A stretch of 64,000 nucleotides of DNA. It comes from an uncultured Candidatus Saccharibacteria bacterium. Its GTDB lineage: Bacteria; Patescibacteriota; Minisyncoccia; Phycocordibacterales; JAKFXT01. The number at the start of each line of letters is the position of its first letter. Positions within the stretch are counted from its first letter, which is position 1. The stretch covers positions 6,326 to 70,325 of the forward strand of contig CAZIPS010000002.1 of assembly GCA_964541455.1 (NCBI GenBank), read 5' to 3'. The notes under the pieces were generated by a model. The model made no database searches. It saw nothing but the letters and a program-made list of their open reading frames with translations, and was not told where the DNA came from. Position numbers and translations under genes: made by a program. Below are positions 11,270 through 59,055 of this stretch, one piece after another.

Positions 11270-11647
11270 TCACCTTCTTGTGCGCGTGGAGCCGTACTCC
11301 ATGGTGTCTTTGAGTAGGTTCCAAAGCAGCTCTTCCGCCCTTTCCATTTCTGGAAGCGTCGGGGAATCGGCGAGAGCGGCACGGAGCGTCCTAATGAGTG
11401 CCATGATGATCTCACTTCTTTCGTTTAACGTGGCGTTCCTAGGGATCTTCCCTACACGCTCCAGTTGTTCCTCGAAGACTGCGAGGGAATCACTTTCACC
11501 ACGCAGAATGATTGAATACATGACGATAAGTCTGCGTGCGTCTCGGTTGTCAGCGGGGACAGTTGTGTGGCCATCCTTTTTCCGGTGTAGCCTGAAAAGG
11601 GCTCCGGTGATGGTCTTGGCATGCTCTATGGTCATGCTCATGGACAT
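11270..11647 (-). CDS. hypothetical protein, GC-rich cassette 2 (125 aa, MSMSMTIEHAKTITGALFRLHRKKDGH...)
   Basis: Minus-strand ATG at 11647 preceded by AGGAG (6-nt spacing); GC-rich; terminator 22 nt past the stop; contains an R-x4-H dipeptide pattern (RKKDGH) but no confident family. Confidence 0.55.
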   Translation of the reverse strand: MSMSMTIEHAKTITGALFRLHRKKDGHTTVPADNRDARRLIVMYSIILRGESDSLAVFEEQLERVGKIPRNATLNERSEIIMALIRTLRAALADSPTLPEMERAEELLWNLLKDTMEYGSTRTRR

Positions 11648-19617: not shown

Positions 19618-19646
19618 TTGCTAAAATGGATTTTTTGTCCTATAGT
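19618..19646 (+). promoter_or_regulatory. sigma70-like promoter TTGCTA-N17-TATAGT upstream of GC-rich cassette 3
   Basis: TTGCTAAAA-TGG-ATTTTTTGT-CC-TATAGT; same module as 1650-1678; a GGCGCGA/TCGCGCC hairpin at 19672-19694 lies in the 5'UTR. Confidence 0.4.
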
Positions 19647-19714
19647 GAAATTTGCTGTAAATTTTGGAAGGCGCGACCAATAAAATTCGCGCCACCACGG
19701 AAAAGGAGGGCCGC

Positions 19715-19978
19715 ATGGCCGCTGAAAAGGGCTGTTGTTGGACGCAGGGCGACAATCGTTGTGTTACGCTCTGCGAGGATGGGCACTGCCCAGGGGGGGA
19801 CGTTTGCGTAACGTCCCAGAGGCACAACGTCAACCACGTCGTTGACTACCCCTACCAGATCCTCCAAAGGGTCATGGAAGAGGGGCGGCCGGGACAGAAG
19901 ACGAAACACAGGCATACTGGGACGGGCGACGGAGACCGTTCTGTCTGGCAGGTGGGCGTCCCTGAAGCTTCATCGTGA
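19715..19978 (+). CDS. hypothetical Cys-rich small protein, GC-rich cassette 3 (87 aa, MAAEKGCCWTQGDNRCVTLCEDGHCPGGDVCVT...)
   Basis: ATG at 19715 lies 5 nt after AAGGAGG; 7 Cys in the first 32 residues; no signal peptide; GC-rich; terminator directly after the stop. Confidence 0.5.
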   Translation: MAAEKGCCWTQGDNRCVTLCEDGHCPGGDVCVTSQRHNVNHVVDYPYQILQRVMEEGRPGQKTKHRHTGTGDGDRSVWQVGVPEASS

Positions 19979-19993
19979 ATGCCCTTCGGGCAA

Positions 19994-20022
19994 GGCTGCG
20001 TACCCCGCAGCCTTTTTTATTA
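19994..20022 (+). terminator. intrinsic terminator of cassette 3
   Basis: GGCTGCG-TACCC-CGCAGCC followed by TTTTTTATTATTT; the T-run abuts the aspS stop codon. Confidence 0.6.
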
Positions 20023-35546: not shown

Positions 35547-36992
35547 TTATTTTAAAAGGGATCCGCTATTCACAATTTCGATTTTTGAGCTGTCCTCGGG
35601 GAGACTTGATTTCCAGGCTGGCCTGATTGAAACCTCGGCTTTTTCTATCCCAGCATAATTTTTGAAAATTTCGTTTACTTTGCTTTGTGGGACTCCAGCG
35701 AGATCTTTAACAAGTTTCTCGTTGTCATAAAGCCAGGTAATGGTGGTGGTCCCCTGAAGGGTGAAGGGAAGGTTCCCACTATTCCAAGGAGCCGTTTCAA
35801 GGCTATCTGGTGAAAATGAGAGATTCTGCAGATTTATACTTGTGACAGGGTCCCCGTTGTAGTCCGGAATATTGTTCTTAGCTAGAAAGGTTGCAAGCTC
35901 ATCTTTTTTGAACAAAATTCCGTGCATGCTCCCCTTAATTGAGATATCAGTGTCATCGGGCTTTGAAAGCATAGTGTAGGTAATGTATACCGCATTGTCA
36001 TAGAGTATGAACCCAGCAGGAACTTGTTCTTTGGCCTTTGAGAGAAGCTTGGCCTTAAGGGTAGCCTTAAGTTCAGTCTGCCCTGCTTCAAGGTCGCTTT
36101 GAGAAGCGGTTTTAATGGTTCCTTTCATACCTCCTGTCATGGGAGTTTTTGATCGGCCAAAAATAGTGTTAAAACGAGGATCACCTTTAAAGCCTGGAAT
36201 GGTAAAATCCGAAAGTGGAATATTGTAGTCTTCGCCAGCTGAATAAGCACTCACTGTCACCTCAACACTCCCTGGCGTACTTCCCTTTTGCGCAGGGACA
36301 ACAACAGAATTATCAATGCGGAAGATGAGATTGTCATCAGTTTCCAATCGAGTATTTTTTACTAAGGCTTGAGACTTGCTTGTTTTGTTAAAAATAACTA
36401 CCGATCCCGTAGCGCGCCGTTCAACCGTTTTTTCGCCAGTTGAGGGAATAGTTTTGTCCCCTGTTTCCTCGAGGGATAAAACATTAAATGCAAGGTCTCC
36501 TGGTTGAGGATTCTTTTTTGCTGCGTAGGTTGCCTTAATACCTATATCTTTAGTTTTTGGGGTAATAGTAATAACTGCGCCAACATGAAGGAACAAATAG
36601 AGAAAGTACACAAGTGCAATTGCTACTGCAAAGCCGCCTATTGAAGCAATACGTGTAATCTTTTTCGAATAAGTACTAACACTTTCGGTTGATGGAATGC
36701 GGGGATTTTTAAAAGAAGTGTACTCACTTTCTTTTCTTACCTCTTTCAAAGGTGGAGGAGTCTCTTCACTTTTTTGGAAATTTTTTGTCTCGGAGGGGTA
36801 TGAGGTATATGTAAGTTCTGTTTTGATACGTGGTGTGTCAGCGCTAAGCGGTTTTGGGGGTACAGGGGCAGGTTCTACCTTCTTTAGTGAGGTCGGTGGG
36901 AGGCGATTTCCTCGACTTGGCAGGTTGATGTCGCGTACAGTACGCTTCGGGTTTGGGGGAACTATGTCTTCAATTAGTTTTTTTCTTAGCAT
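35547..36992 (-). CDS. hypothetical bitopic membrane protein with Pro/Lys-rich cytoplasmic N-terminus and large extracytoplasmic domain
   Basis: Start probably MLRKK at 36992; TM helix IASIGGFAVAIALVYFLYLFL; no family recognised. Confidence 0.4.
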   Translation of the reverse strand: MLRKKLIEDIVPPNPKRTVRDINLPSRGNRLPPTSLKKVEPAPVPPKPLSADTPRIKTELTYTSYPSETKNFQKSEETPPPLKEVRKESEYTSFKNPRIPSTESVSTYSKKITRIASIGGFAVAIALVYFLYLFLHVGAVITITPKTKDIGIKATYAAKKNPQPGDLAFNVLSLEETGDKTIPSTGEKTVERRATGSVVIFNKTSKSQALVKNTRLETDDNLIFRIDNSVVVPAQKGSTPGSVEVTVSAYSAGEDYNIPLSDFTIPGFKGDPRFNTIFGRSKTPMTGGMKGTIKTASQSDLEAGQTELKATLKAKLLSKAKEQVPAGFILYDNAVYITYTMLSKPDDTDISIKGSMHGILFKKDELATFLAKNNIPDYNGDPVTSINLQNLSFSPDSLETAPWNSGNLPFTLQGTTTITWLYDNEKLVKDLAGVPQSKVNEIFKNYAGIEKAEVSIRPAWKSSLPEDSSKIEIVNSGSLLK

Positions 36993-37011
36993 AGGGAATG
37001 AAGGTGTTTTT

Positions 37012-38241
37012 TTACGCTTTATTTTCTGGGTACATTTCAGGGAGGGCTTCTTTCGCTGCCGCTGCAAAGCTAGCACTTATAGCTAGGATTGTATCAAACC
37101 GAATATCAAGACTGAAGCTCACAGAATCAGCTAAAAGAGCTGTGTCAACTAAGCTGACGCGAAATCCATTTGGTACAAGGGTTTGGCTTGCAAAGCCGTG
37201 GGCGGCGCTGATTTCTGAAAAAATATCCTTAAGATCGGTATCAACGAGGAGATACAAATCAGGTGGTACCGAAGTTTCTTCGGTGAGACTAATGAGCGAG
37301 CGTTCCAGGTACGCCAACCATTCGGCTTGTGCTTCTTTGATAAATGGTTCAAGTTTTGCCCGCTCTGGTTCAGCAAGCTTTTTATCATGATATAGTCCGA
37401 GTCGCGCAAGGGCGTCTTCGTTGGTAGTTCCCATTTTTTGTGCTATGTAGCGCACTAAAGAATATTTCCCATAAGGGAAAGATACTGTTTCAAGTAGTGT
37501 ATGGTTGCGCACAAGCGATACTTCGGATATTTCACTTCCAATAGTCATAAAAAGAAAATCAGCTTCTGCGTCAACGCGGTTGCGTAGGGCAATAAAAGCA
37601 GCAAGAGAAAGTGGCTCAACCGACACGTGGGCAGGGGTAAACTTTCTTACTGTTGAAACAAGACTTTGTATGATGACTGGGTCAATAGAGGTTCGGAAGG
37701 CTGACACAGTGACGTCAGTACTTGTTTTCCCGTAAGGATTGCTTACGTGGTATCCATTTATTTTTATATCAATAATGCGTTCATGCACGGTTGCACCATT
37801 CTCTCCCACGAGCTCAATTTCGTGTGCTGGGAGGGTATTTTTTTTCTCAACTTTAAGGAGTGAATCAATAAAATGAGGTGAAATTGAGAACTCTTTCTCA
37901 CTTTTATGATGAATGAGGGTGGTATGGGAGAGGTAGTATGGAGCAGCCAAAATGCAATACACTTCGTCGGCCGCGAGGAGCATATCTTTAGAATTTGTTT
38001 TGTCTAATATGCGTGCAATATGATCAAGTACTTGCTCCAAGGATGAAAGCGCGGTGGTAAGTGTGTCCTTTTGATCACCATCACTTATGTTCTGCTCACC
38101 AAGTACGGTGTAGAGAATATAGGGTTTGCCATCACGCATTTCAACCACCGCTCCACGAGAGTTACCTCTCCCGATATCAAGATACAGTACAAGTTTAAGT
38201 GGCACTGTCTTTGGTAAGTGCAAAAAAGAAAAAAGACCCAT
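37012..38241 (-). CDS. hypothetical protein, possibly actin-fold ATPase (FtsA/PilM-like)
   Basis: 409 aa; N-terminal LVLYLDIGRGNSRGAVVEM resembles the phosphate-1 loop of actin-like ATPases; weak. Confidence 0.35.
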   Translation of the reverse strand: MGLFSFLHLPKTVPLKLVLYLDIGRGNSRGAVVEMRDGKPYILYTVLGEQNISDGDQKDTLTTALSSLEQVLDHIARILDKTNSKDMLLAADEVYCILAAPYYLSHTTLIHHKSEKEFSISPHFIDSLLKVEKKNTLPAHEIELVGENGATVHERIIDIKINGYHVSNPYGKTSTDVTVSAFRTSIDPVIIQSLVSTVRKFTPAHVSVEPLSLAAFIALRNRVDAEADFLFMTIGSEISEVSLVRNHTLLETVSFPYGKYSLVRYIAQKMGTTNEDALARLGLYHDKKLAEPERAKLEPFIKEAQAEWLAYLERSLISLTEETSVPPDLYLLVDTDLKDIFSEISAAHGFASQTLVPNGFRVSLVDTALLADSVSFSLDIRFDTILAISASFAAAAKEALPEMYPENKA

Positions 38242-40069: not shown

Positions 40070-40092
40070 AATAGAAAGAGTGTACCACAGGC

Positions 40093-40656
40093 TTACTTTG
40101 GGAGAAATGTCTCCTTGGCAAGGAGTAGTACCTCTTCGTGTTTAACGACCAAGGGGTACGTTGCGCCCAGTTTTTCCCTTATAACCTCAAAGACTTCATC
40201 ATGGAACCAGGTGTATTGAGTCGGATCTTTAATTTGAATTTTTGCAGGGTTTTCAAGGGCACTTTGGAGATTGTGTATTTTGTCAGCTGAAGCAATAATT
40301 GCGGCGTCGTTTCCCGCCGCTTTTAACTTGGCTATGTAGAGCTCTTTGCGCTCCCTCCAAGAAGAGAGATGTTTGTCTTTTTTAAGAAGCTCAGTCACTG
40401 TTTCAACAAGCATTGCAACACGCTTTCCTAAATGCTCTTCGATTTTATGAAGAGGGTAATCGGTATCTTCAAGAATGTCATGAAGAAGTGCTGCGGCAAT
40501 AACTTCTTCGTCATCATGATGGCTTCCGACAAGACTTGCTACAGAGTACAAATGACTAACGTATGGGAGTGGATACTCATACGCCGCGCGATAGATACCA
40601 TCATGTGCGGCAGTAGCTATTTTTATGGCTTTTTCGATAAGAGGGGTGTAGGTCAT
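40093..40656 (-). CDS. HD-domain phosphohydrolase
   Basis: 187 aa; H...HD (AALLHDILEDT) metal-binding motif; 1-nt overlap with the upstream UDG gene. Confidence 0.7.
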   Translation of the reverse strand: MTYTPLIEKAIKIATAAHDGIYRAAYEYPLPYVSHLYSVASLVGSHHDDEEVIAAALLHDILEDTDYPLHKIEEHLGKRVAMLVETVTELLKKDKHLSSWRERKELYIAKLKAAGNDAAIIASADKIHNLQSALENPAKIQIKDPTQYTWFHDEVFEVIREKLGATYPLVVKHEEVLLLAKETFLPK

Positions 40657-41270
40657 TATGAAGCGAGGAATTCTTTGAGGACGGCAAAATCAGTTTTTAA
40701 CGTATCTTTAGTCTTATTGTTATACACGGCAACTGCTGGATGGTAAAGTGGCACAATGGTTATTTCTCCATAGTTCGTTTTTGCTTTAAATGTCTTCCCA
40801 TGTAGTTCGCTGATGGGGCCTAAGTCTTTAAAGAGACTAAACCGCTCCATAATGTACTTCATGGAATAGCGACCAAGCGTTGCTAAAACCTTGGGTTCAA
40901 TAATGTTTATTTGTCTATCAAGGAAGGGGCCATATGCAGTTATCTCCTCCGGTGTTGGGTCGCGATTAAGAGGAGGTCTATCTTTCGCTATATTGGTTAC
41001 ATACACACTTTCTCGCGGTAGGTTTATGGAGGCGAGGAGTTCATCGAGAATCTTACCGGAGGCACCACAAAAAGGTTTCCCAGTAAGTGCTTCGTTTTTT
41101 CCAGGAGCTTCACCGATAAACATAATTGAAGCATTGAGATCACCTTCCCCTATGACTGGACAGGCGTTATGTTTAGTTCGTTCAGCATAAAGTGGGGATG
41201 TTGTCAGTGCAAAAACTTCGTCTCGAAGTTCAGTCATAAGTACTTGTTTTTGCTTATTACGAGGCGCCAT
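40656..41270 (-). CDS. uracil-DNA glycosylase, family 4
   Basis: 204 aa; motif A GEAPGKNE, Fe-S Cys ligands, motif B (LYHPAV). Confidence 0.85.
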   Translation of the reverse strand: MAPRNKQKQVLMTELRDEVFALTTSPLYAERTKHNACPVIGEGDLNASIMFIGEAPGKNEALTGKPFCGASGKILDELLASINLPRESVYVTNIAKDRPPLNRDPTPEEITAYGPFLDRQINIIEPKVLATLGRYSMKYIMERFSLFKDLGPISELHGKTFKAKTNYGEITIVPLYHPAVAVYNNKTKDTLKTDFAVLKEFLAS

Positions 41271-41273
41271 TAA

Positions 41274-41305
41274 AAGTAGTATAGCAAAATATAAAACCCG
41301 TCTTC
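41274..41305 (-). terminator. intrinsic terminator of cassette 4
   Basis: AACCCGTC-TTCAC-GACGGGTT hairpin followed (minus strand) by TTTTATATTTTGC. Confidence 0.55.
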
Positions 41306-41341
41306 ACGACGGGTTCCCTGCGGGGCAGGCAGCCTTGGCGC

Positions 41342-41509
41342 TTAGCTGGCGCGGGTATGCCTTTTCTGGTAGCCACCGTGAGGGGCAGGCAGCCCCCCTG
41401 GCGGCGGGTCGCGCGCCTTTGGCGCGGGCGTGGATTCAAACAGAAATACTGGCCCAGAGAATGCTACGTTAAGTACTGTCTCGATGAGGCAGTACATGAG
41501 ATGTTTCAT
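41342..41509 (-). CDS. hypothetical small protein, GC-rich cassette 4 (55 aa, MKHLMYCLIETVLNVAFSGPVFLFESTPAPKARDPPPGGLPAPHGGYQKRHTRAS)
   Basis: Below the ORF-track size cutoff; found by hand: minus-strand ATG at 41509 lies 7 nt after AGGAGG; hydrophobic N-terminal half, Pro/Gly-rich basic C-terminus; terminator 37 nt after the stop; contains the direct repeat GGGGCAGGCAGCC twice. Confidence 0.4.
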   Translation of the reverse strand: MKHLMYCLIETVLNVAFSGPVFLFESTPAPKARDPPPGGLPAPHGGYQKRHTRAS

Positions 41510-41544
41510 GGTCGCTGCCTCCTCTTGTTTGCAAAACTAAAAAA

Positions 41545-41573
41545 ATAGTAGCAAAAAACTAGTTCTTTTACAA
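41545..41573 (-). promoter_or_regulatory. sigma70-like promoter TTGTAA-N17-TACTAT (minus strand) upstream of cassette 4
   Basis: Minus-strand TTGTAA-AAGAACTAGTTTTTTGC-TACTAT; spacer again carries AGTTTTTTG; the -35 overlaps the ogt stop codon. Confidence 0.35.
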
Positions 41574-41846
41574 CTTTATGTGCACCCCTTCGGCTTTAAG
41601 AAGCGCTCTCTTTTTTTCTGTTCCTCCACGGTTATACTCTCCTATCTTTCCATCACTTCGTATAACACGATGACACGGCACAGTGGGGTCGTAATTGTTT
41701 TTCATAATAGTTCCCACAGCCCGCGAGGCTCTGGGGTTTCCTGCTTGTTTGGCAACTTCCCCATAGCTCATAGTTTCCCCTTTTGGAATAGCACGTACCA
41801 CTTTTCTCACTCGTTCTGCAAACAGTGTTGTGGACGATGTTCGCAT
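41568..41846 (-). CDS. ogt: methylated-DNA--protein-cysteine methyltransferase (Ogt/MGMT) DNA-binding/catalytic domain
   Basis: 92 aa; active-site PCHRV and the YGEVA...G.P.A.RAVG helix-turn-helix. Confidence 0.8.
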   Translation of the reverse strand: MRTSSTTLFAERVRKVVRAIPKGETMSYGEVAKQAGNPRASRAVGTIMKNNYDPTVPCHRVIRSDGKIGEYNRGGTEKKRALLKAEGVHIKL

Positions 41847-41851
41847 ATTAA

Positions 41852-42628
41852 TTATTTTTTGCGAAGCTTTGCATCAGCTAAGGCAGCCTCTTTTCGATAA
41901 GCACAATATTGGCAGGTATCTGCTGGTTTTGGGAGAGTTTCCTCAAGGAGGCATTTTTTTATAGCAACAAGTGTTTCTGGGATCCACGAAGGATCGCCTT
42001 TATATGGAAGAAGGACGACGTCAAATTCAAGTTTTCCATCGAAAGCCTCCCTATCTTGTTTACCATTTACATACACAAAGTAGCCAGTGTCTGAAACTTT
42101 AAAACCATTTTGGCGGAAAAGCCATTGGTATACTTCCATTTGACGCTTGTAGCCGATTTGCCAGTCAGCATCAAGAGTGATTTCAGCTTCGGCATCAGCC
42201 TTACTGGTGGCCTTGTAGTCAGCGATAATAAGTTCTCCCTCGGGGTTCACCCATACATCATCAATTCCTCCACGAATAAGGAGGTTGAGTGCTTTGTCTG
42301 TGTATTTAATCCCATTTCGTAGTGCGTCCCTCCATTCATCCATACGCTCGTCTTGAAATGGGACTGCGTCTAGCCCGTAGCTCTTCAAAAGGGGGTGCTT
42401 ACTCTGGGCTTTGCGGTGAATATCGAACTCTTTTTTTAGCAAAGCGTCAACGGCATTGTTGAGAGTGAAAGGAAAAGAATCAGGCCGTCCGATGCCGAGC
42501 CTGCGATCGAGATAAAAGCAGCGAGGACACTCGAGGAATAAATCTATTTTACTTCGTGAAAGTTCAAAGGGTTCTTTGCTTTGCGGGTTAAATATTTTGT
42601 ATGTTTTGACTTTATAGAGAAATGCCAT
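41852..42628 (-). CDS. Cas4-like/RecB-family PD-(D/E)xK nuclease with a 4-Cys cluster
   Basis: 258 aa; N-terminal C-x2-C (LECPRC), central D...E.K (IIADYKATS), C-terminal C-x2-C (TCQYC): the Cas4/DUF83 arrangement; no cas genes nearby. Confidence 0.6.
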   Translation of the reverse strand: MAFLYKVKTYKIFNPQSKEPFELSRSKIDLFLECPRCFYLDRRLGIGRPDSFPFTLNNAVDALLKKEFDIHRKAQSKHPLLKSYGLDAVPFQDERMDEWRDALRNGIKYTDKALNLLIRGGIDDVWVNPEGELIIADYKATSKADAEAEITLDADWQIGYKRQMEVYQWLFRQNGFKVSDTGYFVYVNGKQDREAFDGKLEFDVVLLPYKGDPSWIPETLVAIKKCLLEETLPKPADTCQYCAYRKEAALADAKLRKK

Positions 42629-42666
42629 ATTAAAAGAAAGGAAAAGTTCAGTAGTATTCGTTTGTA

Positions 42667-43179
42667 TTATTCGGCTGCTTCTTTTCGCATTTGTTCCTCA
42701 ACTCCCCAAAGGGTCGAGAAAATAAACAATGCAAGAATAGTAGTAACGATAGCAATCGTGAAGTAACCAAAGGCAACAGCGATACCAATACCATTTGCTA
42801 CCCACAACCCTGCGGCTGTAGTTACTCCAATGATTCGGTCATTGTGGTAGATAATAATACCTCCACAAAGGAATCCTATACCCATAACAATTCCCGCCGC
42901 CATACGCATCGGGTCAAAATTGGTAAACCCAATAAATTCTTTTGTAGCTAAAAGCGAAATAAGAACTAAAAGACATGATCCAAGCGAAACAAAAGCATAG
43001 GTACGCATACCCGCCATTTTATGAGCAAGCGTACGTTCGGTACCAATAACTGCCCCTAACCCAACTGCTAAAAGCAGCTTAATGATAAGTGGGAGATTAA
43101 AAGTGAGATATAGCGCTACTGGTTCTGGAATAGTCATAGTCTTAGAGTGTATTTTGACAGAGAACTTTTCCTTCTTCAA
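42667..43179 (-). CDS. mgtC: MgtC/SapB-family membrane protein
   Basis: 170 aa; GAVIGTERTLAHKMAGMRTY motif and 4 TM helices. Confidence 0.7.
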   Translation of the reverse strand: MKKEKFSVKIHSKTMTIPEPVALYLTFNLPLIIKLLLAVGLGAVIGTERTLAHKMAGMRTYAFVSLGSCLLVLISLLATKEFIGFTNFDPMRMAAGIVMGIGFLCGGIIIYHNDRIIGVTTAAGLWVANGIGIAVAFGYFTIAIVTTILALFIFSTLWGVEEQMRKEAAE

Positions 43180-43984
43180 GTACTTTGTTCATTTTTGTGT
43201 CTGACATGCCAAGCTTCTGCATGGCTTCACGGTTTTCGTCAATTGTTTTGCAAAGCACGACACCGCTTGTAAGAAGATTAAGTTTCTCCTGTTTAGAAAG
43301 AGTCGTAAGGCAAGTAATAGGATGAATACCAGTTTGTTCAATAAGGTCTTGTAGATTTCCAAAACGAGGGTATGTCCAACTTAAGACTTTAAGCCCCTTG
43401 CAGTTCGCGTACTGTACTGCTTGTTTTGTAAATTTGGTGTTCGTGATAAGCCAACCCTCATCAATAGGGCGACCTCCACGCTCGGCGCGATACTTCTTAA
43501 TATCCTCGATACGAGAATTGACATAGAGTGCTACTTTTACATCTGACTTAATACCAAGTTGGTTGTGAAATTTTACTTCGCCTAAAATAGACTTTTGGTC
43601 ATTTTCTGCGACAAGATCTACTTCGTGCTCAACGCATGATCCTTGCAGCATCACTCCAGTCTCAACTTTAAAACCTTTCGCTTTAAAAATTTCACCAATA
43701 AAATCTTCAAAAGGAAAACCAGAAGGACCAAGCTCCATGACGGCACGTTTAAGTGAGTAACGCATAGCGGCAGGTTTCTCAATCGTACGTAAATACTCGT
43801 AAGCTTTTTTATAGATAAGTCCGGTGGGCATGCCGGGCTTGATTTCGCTTTTAATTTCTCTAGTTACAGCGTTAATTGCCTTATCTGTCGCTCCAGAACG
43901 GTGGAGTGAGTGAATAAGTTTGCTTATATCGAAAGCTTCAAGCTCACCATTTTCTTTAAGTATGAGAAGCGGTTTTTTAGACAT
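43142..43984 (-). CDS. ATP-cone domain fused to Mrr-like restriction-endonuclease-fold domain
   Basis: 280 aa; N-terminal ATP-cone (LILKENGELEAFDISKLIHSLHRSGA); C-terminal PD-(D/E)xK (EVDLVAEND...GEVKFHNQ). Confidence 0.6.
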   Translation of the reverse strand: MSKKPLLILKENGELEAFDISKLIHSLHRSGATDKAINAVTREIKSEIKPGMPTGLIYKKAYEYLRTIEKPAAMRYSLKRAVMELGPSGFPFEDFIGEIFKAKGFKVETGVMLQGSCVEHEVDLVAENDQKSILGEVKFHNQLGIKSDVKVALYVNSRIEDIKKYRAERGGRPIDEGWLITNTKFTKQAVQYANCKGLKVLSWTYPRFGNLQDLIEQTGIHPITCLTTLSKQEKLNLLTSGVVLCKTIDENREAMQKLGMSDTKMNKVLEEGKVLCQNTL

Positions 43985-56985: not shown

Positions 56986-57618
56986 TCAGCGTGGTGGCGC
57001 CAGAACAAGCCTGAGGAAATCCTCCATGGTATCGGCGATGAGGCAGCCCATCGCCTCAAGCTGCTCCTTGCTTGGAAAACCGCCGAGGCCGAACTGGGGT
57101 TGCCATTCGCACCCGACGATCACCTTGGGAGGAGGTTCGTCTTCGTTGTCCCGCAAGTTTTCCTTCCGAGCAAGCGCCGTCACGATGTGCAAAAAGTCAT
57201 CAGGGTTGGGCCGAAGGTGGTACTTGCCGGGGTTTTCGAAGTAGTGTGCTGTAAACCAGAAGAGAAAAGTATGGGAGAGTGCCAAGGAGAGCCGCACATT
57301 GCCTGCGTCCTCGATGTCCTTGCGCGGGTCATCATGAAGGAAAAAACTTCCCCGCTCGAGGCCAACGTCCACCACCCCCTTGAACCCAGACAGGGCCCGC
57401 AGGGCGTGATACTGCCATGGGACATGCGTTGGGTCATTGAGAGCATTGATCGGCCCACAAAGGGCCACGCTTCCAAATGCCGCCATGGCATGACTCGAAA
57501 CTAGGTCGAGCTCTTGATGCCTCCAGCGGTAGTGGCCAGTGAGATTGAGGCTCTGCCAGAACTTTTGTACAGCAGCAGCCTTTTCTTGCAACTCTTGCAA
57601 TTCTCCGGGAGCGAACAT
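56986..57618 (-). CDS. hypothetical protein, GC-rich cassette 5 (210 aa, MFAPGELQELQEKAAAVQKFWQSL...)
   Basis: Minus-strand ATG at 57618 preceded by AAGGAA; spans the whole 60%-GC island; terminator 17 nt after the stop; overlapping ORFs in other frames lack translation signals; no family recognised. Confidence 0.55.
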   Translation of the reverse strand: MFAPGELQELQEKAAAVQKFWQSLNLTGHYRWRHQELDLVSSHAMAAFGSVALCGPINALNDPTHVPWQYHALRALSGFKGVVDVGLERGSFFLHDDPRKDIEDAGNVRLSLALSHTFLFWFTAHYFENPGKYHLRPNPDDFLHIVTALARKENLRDNEDEPPPKVIVGCEWQPQFGLGGFPSKEQLEAMGCLIADTMEDFLRLVLAPPR

Positions 57619-58839: not shown

Positions 58840-59055
58840 ATGGACTTTTGTCCAGCATGCGGTGGGCTTCTCAAGGAGACCCACCTCTCAGGAAACCTCT
58901 ACGGGTTTTCTCGGCGTGATGCATACAAGTGCAATGACTGCAGCCTTGTCTTGGCACGCGCTAACGGCGGGGCGGTACACTCGGTCACCCCCATCGCACC
59001 AAATGCGGTGGTGATCGAGGGGTACAAGTTGGGGCTCCGTCTCCCACAGGTTTAG
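58840..59055 (+). CDS. hypothetical zinc-ribbon small protein, GC-rich cassette 6 (71 aa)
   Basis: ATG at 58840 lies 7 nt after AGGAG; CPACGG ... CNDC (C-x2-C-x23-C-x2-C) zinc-ribbon pattern; GC-rich; terminator 6 nt after the stop. Confidence 0.55.
   Translation: MDFCPACGGLLKETHLSGNLYGFSRRDAYKCNDCSLVLARANGGAVHSVTPIAPNAVVIEGYKLGLRLPQV

Follow-up and report, generated by a model that had tools for sequence, protein, structure and literature searches.

We examined a 64-kb stretch of DNA (the window) from a genome of the Parcubacteria/Paceibacteria type, within the candidate phyla radiation (CPR), and studied in it the 297-nt island that separates ogt from the gene for a family-4 uracil-DNA glycosylase (UDG), both of them DNA-repair genes. 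Comparison with relatives shows that the island was inserted, in this lineage, into a slot whose content varies. A sister species retains the expression signals of the island but not the body of its 55-codon open reading frame (ORF), for which we found no homologue. We tentatively read it, with slightly less than even confidence, as an autonomous, lineage-restricted orphan cassette that resembles a phage moron, sits in a hypervariable slot and would encode a short, weakly constrained peptide behind a ribosome-binding site that is buried in the predicted fold. As an orphan cassette it changes fast, and its standing as a small-protein gene is not established. What follows on transcription and its start, on translation, on the fold and on any function of the peptide is prediction from sequence.

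The insertion is evident from the ogt–UDG junction in relatives, which we compared over L006 2235-3112, L012 2215-3076, L009 1630-3106 and L098 2048-3577. Relatives with a UDG of 72-73% identity keep the order Mrr-ogt-UDG-AlaRS and differ at the junction: ogt overlaps UDG by 4 nt in L006, a gap of 34 nt separates them in L012, and a gene for a PCMT-type methyltransferase stands between them in L009-L011. Because relatives at about 73% UDG identity have ogt adjacent to UDG, the island is an insertion. The sister species (L098, L099 and L014; UDG 75% identical) has the same gene order as the window, Mrr-MgtC-PD-(D/E)XK-ogt, then the slot, then UDG-HD_4-AlaRS, and its slot holds an orphan ORF of 146 amino acids (aa) and measures 654 nt in L098 vs 297 nt here. 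Contigs from several independent assemblies encode an identical UDG and all carry the same island, and at 80 genome loci that surround more distant UDG homologues, of 67% identity at best, nothing resembling it was found. Among the compared relatives, MgtC, PD-(D/E)XK and HD_4 are confined to the window and L098 lineages.

DNA identity between the window and the sister species is 65-78% in coding genes, and the one ordinary intergenic spacer compared is unalignable (23%). Within the slot, two blocks align. The first comprises promoter, leader, Shine–Dalgarno (SD) motif and ATG (E = 0.003); approximately the first 19 nt of the leader, TTTTTTAGTTTYGYAMACA, match at 17 of 19 positions, and AGGAGGCA is identical (8/8), followed by CCATGA. 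The second comprises the terminator and the extended -10 element of UDG (E = 9e-6). The slot interiors show no residual homology by blastn or tblastx, and their Smith-Waterman score falls below that of dinucleotide shuffles. As the blocks align and the interiors do not, the start of transcription and translation would be older than the sequence driven by it. The payload of the slot appears to be either extremely fast-evolving or exchanged, and on this pattern the ogt–UDG junction is a hotspot at which differing payloads would replace each other behind a conserved promoter, leader, SD motif and ATG. The sister 146-aa ORF has coding-like periodicity in its first 270 nt and is uniformly rich in guanine and cytosine (GC) in its last 170 nt; it has no Pfam, PHROGs or NCBIfam match, and a homologue search returned the ORF alone.

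Conservation of promoter, leader, SD motif and ATG in the sister species, together with the absence of the island between the same genes in distant relatives, supports its reading as a separate minus-strand transcription unit (Table 1). An earlier note on this DNA, made from the sequence alone, had described a promoter TTGTAA-N17-TACTAT, a minus-strand AGGAGG-N7-ATG and a hairpin terminator after the ORF. The promoter is present (17-nt spacer, TACTAT at 41550-41545) and has an extended -10 TG (TGCTACTAT), the form that precedes many genes of this genome; transcription would begin near 41538. The AGGAGG and the ATG (41509-41507) are both there, but the spacer between them is 8 nt (CAGCGACC) instead of 7. 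The terminator was confirmed as a stem of 10 pairs (41317-41293) followed by TTTTATATTTT. A 'AGTTTTTTG spacer element', said to be common to this cassette and to those numbered 1 and 3 in the note, did not hold up: five occurrences compare with 2.7 expected, 14 of 100 shuffles reach five, and the cassette at 1661 has the element, whereas it is missing upstream of that at 19715.

No 80-nt stretch of the window is richer in GC than one in the island (75% vs a window mean of 42.8%). The UDG start is, by its motif, of leaderless type, and its own -10 would mark the 3' boundary of the inserted unit. Repeats at the ends of the island (41271-41289 and 41538-41556) were considered as target-site duplications and rejected because both are extended -10 promoters.

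Table 1 Features of the ogt–UDG interval, and orphan ORFs of the window that carry an SD core
Feature	Position	Strand	Sequence and remarks
ogt-like gene	41568-41846	minus	Pfam DNA_binding_1
-35-like hexamer	41573-41568	minus	TTGTAA; overlaps ogt stop codon; TTGTCA aligned in the sister species
Extended -10 (TGnTAnnnT type)	41545..41553	minus	TGCTACTAT; motif read; TACTCT in L013 via A41546C
Putative 5' leader, ~29 nt	41510..41538	minus	holds conserved AGTTTTGCAAACAA and AGGAGG (41523-41518)
Predicted 5' stem-loop	41483..41524	minus	GAGGAGGCAG (41524-41515) pairs with CUGCCUCAUC (41492-41483)
55-codon ORF	41342..41509	minus	MKHLMYCLIETVLNVAFSGPVFLFESTPAPKARDPPPGGLPAPHGGYQKRHTRAS; from ORF listing; no homologues; atypical codon statistics
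GC-rich body, 74% GC	41318..41432	minus	imperfect tandem duplication, CCCGCGCCA...GGCUGCCUGCCCC twice
G6 run	41393-41398	minus	G8 in L013 (GG insertion), frame shifted
13-bp repeat, copy 1	41382..41394	plus	GGGGCAGGCAGCC; RNA strand reads GGCUGCCUGCCCC, contains GCUGCCU
13-bp repeat, copy 2	41322..41334	plus	exact
Intrinsic terminator	41282..41317	minus	stem GGAACCCGUC/GACGGGUUUU, loop GUGAA, U-rich tail
Extended -10 of UDG	41278-41286 (element 41268..41286)	minus	TGCTATACT; UDG ATG 7 nt later; kept in the sister species
Family-4 UDG	40656-41270	minus	PF03167
Orphan ORF with SD	1737-2039	plus	
Orphan ORF with SD	11270-11647	minus	
Orphan ORF with SD	19715-19978	plus	
Orphan ORF with SD	41342-41509	minus	the 55-codon ORF
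Orphan ORF with SD	56986-57618	minus	
Orphan ORF with SD	58840-59055	plus	

The 55-aa ORF that the note had found by hand was confirmed, and the only other ORFs here are out of frame (60 and 63 aa). By a rough estimate, the chance of a 55-codon open frame after an ATG at this composition is ~0.2. We scored codons as log-odds per codon with the long genes of the genome as reference; these have GC by codon position of 0.54/0.37/0.37 and a codon score of 0.31 +/- 0.06, with a minimum of 0.19. The whole ORF has GC of 0.62/0.50/0.62 and a score of -0.12, below every host gene. Its first 27 codons give 0.48/0.30/0.52 and 0.04, and its last 29 codons 0.76/0.69/0.72, without periodicity, and -0.26; the other GC-rich cassette ORFs of the window show a third-position GC excess (0.62-0.77). 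No annotation pipeline calls the full ORF, and the one partial call shares its ATG and lies at a contig end (L111). The earlier proposal of a small protein gene thus stands as regards a unit with signals of its own, but a real, selected 55-aa protein is not established, because of the frameshift in L013 described below, the flat GC and low codon score, the lack of a homologue and the absence of a full-length call.

Strain-level variation points the same way. Thirteen contigs have an identical ogt, and there are three haplotypes in all: the window type, which is the commonest, the window type with A41505G (K2R), and L013. Over the 297 nt of the island, L013 differs by six substitutions (2.0%) and two 2-nt indels, evenly spread. 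The -10 changes from TACTAT to TACTCT; the leader has one substitution and one 2-nt deletion; the ORF has K2R, one synonymous change and a C-to-T change in repeat copy 1, in addition to the GG insertion; and one change falls between the UDG promoter and ATG. The insertion shifts the frame after codon 37, replacing the last 18 residues by a different 51-residue tail that reads through the terminator into the start of UDG. It follows that protein-level constraint does not act on the C-terminal third of the 55-aa product, and the first ~37 codons are the sole coding part common to the known strains. Third-position changes next to the island number 2/93 in ogt and 7/205 in UDG. An island rate close to that of adjacent silent sites, the frameshift and the flat GC together argue that the ORF body is weakly constrained. 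In its full predicted form, the 55-aa protein is not conserved.

Divergence of L013 from the window is uneven over 40600-43774. Mrr, MgtC and PD-(D/E)XK differ by 4-7%, with nearly all changes at third positions (44/44 in Mrr), whereas ogt differs by 1.4% and UDG by ~2.7%. This suggests that purifying selection is strong and that recombination or a sweep occurred recently around ogt, the island and UDG.

The same observations bear on another explanation, possible but somewhat unlikely in our estimate, in which the island is what is left, in decay, of a slot that once contained a larger foreign gene similar to the sister 146-aa ORF. The interior would have been deleted and scrambled by tandem duplication and slippage in the G run, so that promoter, SD, ATG and terminator now surround sequence with no useful coding content, the 55-codon frame being incidental. 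Consistent with decay are the slot of 297 nt against 654 nt in L098 between homologous flanks, the imperfect internal duplication, indel polymorphism that includes a frameshift, a substitution rate near that of neighboring silent sites, a codon score under every host gene, the lack of a homologue in any frame and the weakened -10 of L013 (TACTCT). However, the 5' signals (the 17/19 leader and the 8/8 AGGAGGCA) are better kept than most coding sequence, which is unexpected for junk, and a 75% GC block should erode if it were unconstrained in a 43% GC genome. Moreover, the two interiors do not share any similarity by which descent from the 146-aa gene could be documented.

Searches for homologues support the orphan status of the ORF. 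The exact 55-aa product is absent from recorded genes. HMMER against 1.84 billion representative proteins gave a single match, an artefact due to a repetitive Pro-rich ORF, and a six-frame concatenate of the island had no match among 5.8 billion proteins. Pfam, PHROGs and NCBIfam, toxin families included, gave no match to the ORF (PADLOC was not searched). Against phages and plasmids, blastn of the island returned chance matches of 28-37 nt and nothing else; viral collections queried with the repeat pair, the leader with the SD and the peptide gave no match, and two other cassette ORFs of the window had no relatives among viral sequences. A metagenome scan with the conserved 3' flank found one identical copy and four chance matches in AT-rich contigs. 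Across these collections the 55-aa ORF is shown to be an orphan.

The GC-rich body of the island contains repeats at spacings of 60 nt and 73 nt. A 13-bp direct repeat pointed out in the earlier note is real and exact, but its copies are at 41322 and 41382 rather than at 41321 and 41383. The repeat extends to a 19-nt stretch that recurs 60 nt away at 89% identity, and the copies of a second pair, TGGCGCGGG, are 73 nt apart. Tandem Repeats Finder detected no tandem array on the island; the duplication is too imperfect for it and was picked up by find_repeats alone. The note had also asked whether the repeat occurs elsewhere in the genome: within the window, and allowing two mismatches, there are four matches vs 0.78 expected, a number reached by none of 100 shuffles. 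Near 19991-20010, 20 nt are similar to repeat copy 2 (90% identity, E = 0.9).

The full transcript of ~254 nt is predicted to fold with z = -3.5, none of 200 shuffles being as stable, and the 150-nt segment 41291-41440, which holds the GC-rich body and the terminator, with z = -2.4. The 3' part of the sister slot is likewise uniformly GC-rich (z = -3.4). These values would fit a small regulatory or structural RNA, an explanation that we consider unlikely, in which the ~250-nt transcript is itself the product (5' stem-loop, body with two C-rich GGCUGCCUGCCCC motifs, and terminator) and the ORF is incidental. It is also in line with the highest GC of the window and with a 3' half that lacks codon periodicity. 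Three of three polymorphisms inside predicted helices (L013 and L003) keep pairing possible: C41385T of L013, in repeat copy 1, turns a predicted G-C pair into G-U, the longer G-run lies in a stem arm, and A41505G adds a G-C pair to an inner hairpin. None of them is truly compensatory, however.

Family searches likewise count against an RNA product. Rfam over 40900-41950 at E <= 1 returned a sole match, a chance snoRNA outside the island; at the gathering threshold over the whole window it returned tRNA-Pro alone, and ARAGORN found no transfer-messenger RNA (tmRNA). The island thus belongs to no Rfam family among those considered (6S, signal recognition particle RNA, RNase P, tmRNA, riboswitches and known small RNAs). 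A covariance model of the GC-rich body, run against the window, the sister slot and 48 related loci, matches itself only. The longer structured RNA that the earlier note had held out as an alternative is not borne out, there being no Rfam match and no structural analogue in relatives. The element is absent at ~73% UDG identity, and because it is absent in relatives it is not a housekeeping RNA. A small RNA also leaves the perfect, sister-conserved SD-N8-ATG unexplained.

Under the cassette reading that we favor, the fold would act on translation. The predicted partner of the SD region, CUGCCUCAUC, falls in codons 6-9, and a predicted inner hairpin of CAUGA (41510-41506) with UCAUG (41499-41495) contains the start codon. 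The GCUGCCU in both repeat copies is the exact complement of AGGCAGC, formed by the SD and spacer. Three sites in the transcript are perfect 7-nt complements of the SD region (P ~0.002 by shuffling); of these three, two stem from one duplication. In the sister species the SD is also paired in the predicted fold (AAGGAGGC with GCCUUCUU), and there are no perfect anti-SD sites. Given the predicted burial of SD and AUG and the anti-SD copies, we expect translation to be low or conditional.

The hydrophobic N-terminal helix proposed for the peptide is a borderline case. AlphaFold2, run on the single 55-aa sequence, places a helix at residues 2-18 and disorder elsewhere, with moderate confidence (mean pLDDT 65); the 19-residue Kyte-Doolittle maximum is 1.55 against the usual transmembrane threshold of 1.6. 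Such a peptide might belong to a type I toxin-like module, that is, a small membrane-active peptide with a structure-locked ribosome-binding site and antisense RNA control. We regard this as very improbable. The ORF is shorter than 60 aa and combines a predicted N-terminal hydrophobic helix with a basic tail, the predicted fold sequesters its SD and AUG, extra anti-SD copies are present, the unit stands alone in a variable intergenic slot, and TGCTACGTT on the plus strand at 41462-41470 could be an antisense -10. Yet the hydropathy is below the transmembrane threshold, the antisense motif is at chance frequency (~1 per kb per strand) with no plus-strand terminator after it in the island, the family searches that included toxins were empty within the scope given above, and the sister slot has a 146-aa ORF that is not toxin-like. 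The TGCTACGTT element is an extended -10 of host type, and RNA from it would be antisense to the start codon, SD and leader; it may be due to chance. A promoter and terminator scanner reported no plus-strand promoter or terminator in the island.

On the cassette reading, we propose that RNA polymerase would start at the promoter of extended -10 type, the -35 of which shares bases with the ogt stop codon, and would make an RNA of ~250 nt ending at the intrinsic terminator, 23 nt before UDG. UDG would be re-expressed from its own promoter as a leaderless-type mRNA, so that the cassette terminator would uncouple it from the upstream operon. The RNA would bear an SD-led ORF whose first ~37 codons may specify an N-terminal hydrophobic or amphipathic helix. 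The 3' remainder would be a GC-rich, tandemly duplicated, strongly folding block in which the reading frame is not maintained, and SD and AUG would lie in the predicted 5' hairpin, with two further anti-SD GCUGCCU copies in the repeats.

A short ORF, alternative GC-rich hairpins and a terminator just upstream of UDG could also make up a cis-acting leader or attenuator of UDG, formed by a leader peptide and the terminator. We reject this barely credible arrangement because UDG keeps its own promoter after the terminator, a conserved extended -10 lying between the terminator and the UDG ATG. Relatives, moreover, express UDG directly behind ogt without such an element, the sister species has a 146-aa ORF at this position, and none of the repeated segments reaches into the terminator stem.

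The SD motif of the island sets it apart from the surrounding genes. An SD core, scored at -20 to -4 and down to a 4-mer, was found in none of 44 conserved genes of the window, including those for S13, S11, S4, RpoA, L17, S9 and GrpE, and in all six of its GC-rich (53-60% GC) orphan ORFs (Fisher p = 6e-8 vs the 44 core genes; Table 1), three of which have (G)AGGAGG. In relatives, the core is present in four of four orphan ORFs (orf81 of L006, orf104 and orf106 of L012, and orphan146 of L098) and in 1/15 of the other listed genes of L006, L012 and L098, namely the UDG of L012. Ahead of the 44 genes, a TAnnnT box ends 4-10 nt before the ATG in 20 cases, vs 12.3 +/- 2.9 in shuffles. Extended -10 elements (TGnTAnnnT, for example TGGTATACT and TGCTATACT) occur near the ATG of UDG (41278-41286) and AlaRS (40070-40092) and upstream of 43984, 21345 and 18246. 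Boxes so placed indicate putative leaderless or near-leaderless mRNAs.

Tsurumaki et al. 2022 could detect the 16S anti-SD motif in only 48% of Parcubacteria (PMC9297842). The split in SD use fits reported loss of the anti-SD, and suggests either two classes of translation signal or a foreign origin of the orphans. That leadered orphan ORFs across the clade repeatedly carry the SD suggests its use, and AGGAGG marks the cassette as a member of a distinct, probably foreign gene class; AGGAGG by itself is no proof of translation here. A fuller version of this idea seems to us decidedly improbable: that GC-rich orphan cassettes led by an SD, the island among them, form a class of their own under separately controlled translation, in a Parcubacteria lineage whose core genes dispense with the SD entirely. 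They might encode type I toxin-like peptides or effectors that came from the bacterial host or a mobile element, and the present cassette would be a toxin-like peptide locked by its own anti-SD repeats. The contrast between SD-less core genes and SD-led, GC-rich orphans is a more notable result than the island. If genome-wide, it would provide a simple sequence marker of foreign or accessory genes in Parcubacteria and would help to test whether their ribosomes still use SD pairing.

Two more GC-rich cassettes, at 1650-2075 and 19640-20018, lie on the plus strand, opposite the surrounding genes. Each has a perfect SD and an ORF rich in third-position GC (100 or 87 aa), followed by a GC-rich hairpin and then a T-run, as read by eye. 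Neither ORF has a Pfam, PHROGs or NCBIfam match, and the 100-aa ORF, the only one of these two searched, is without viral relatives. The 71-aa GC-rich ORF at 58840-59055 (plus) weakly matches the zinc ribbon of an IS1595 transposase (E = 0.0023, below the Pfam cutoff) and may be a mobile-element remnant. Two further minus-strand ORFs of 509 and 409 aa, at 35547-37076 and 37012-38241, adjoin the ribosomal-protein cluster and have no Pfam match at E <= 1e-5.

Several observations weigh against the cassette reading as we have put it. The promoter matches the sigma-70 consensus at 8 of 12 positions and was unlisted by the promoter scanner. The 99-nt segment with the 5' stem-loop alone is no stabler than shuffles (z = -0.9). 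The 16S rRNA gene lies outside the window, and anti-SD loss is reported in about half of Parcubacteria (PMC9297842). GC-richness is kept in the slots of both sister species, which hints at selection on the interior beyond what this reading names, and three haplotypes are too few to measure strain-level constraint. Finally, there are no phage genes near the island, though 'moron' is a phage concept. Taken alone, the island matters little, as an unannotated, species-restricted orphan unit without an inferable cellular role; it is useful as an example of a payload hotspot between DNA-repair genes in a reduced CPR genome.

The island may be compared with several known systems. Like the type I toxin genes hok, tisB, ibs, fst and bsrG, it has a small ORF with a putatively hydrophobic N-terminus and charged tail, on a structured mRNA in which SD and AUG are predicted to be buried; this ORF lies between genes, has no relatives, evolves fast and easily escapes annotation. 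Unlike them, the island has no identified antitoxin RNA and no toxin-family homology, its hydropathy is borderline, and the orthologous sister slot encodes a 146-aa ORF. A conserved small-protein family would have homologues with the frame preserved; here there is no true homologue and the frame is broken in L013. With the taxonomically restricted (orphan or de novo) small ORFs of bacterial genomes it shares the lack of homologues in billions of proteins, short length, a disordered tail, atypical codons, and a length that varies among close relatives (55, 88 and 146 aa). In contrast to such ORFs, the expression signals of the island are older and better conserved than the ORF that they would drive. 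The island is also far GC-richer than the host genome, which speaks for acquisition from outside rather than for birth de novo out of local DNA.

Phage morons are autonomous promoter-gene-terminator units inserted between genes that lie side by side in relatives; the concept is said to go back to Juhala/Hendrix et al. 2000. The island differs from them in that it lies in a CPR chromosome, its neighbors are not phage genes and it has no match in phage or viral collections; its payload, too, is very short and unconserved even between strains. The island resembles them in having its own promoter and terminator, recognized as sequence motifs and both kept in the sister species, in its deviating composition (75% vs 43% GC), in an SD foreign to the surrounding genes, and in its absence between the same two genes in relatives, where these are adjacent (L006 and L012).

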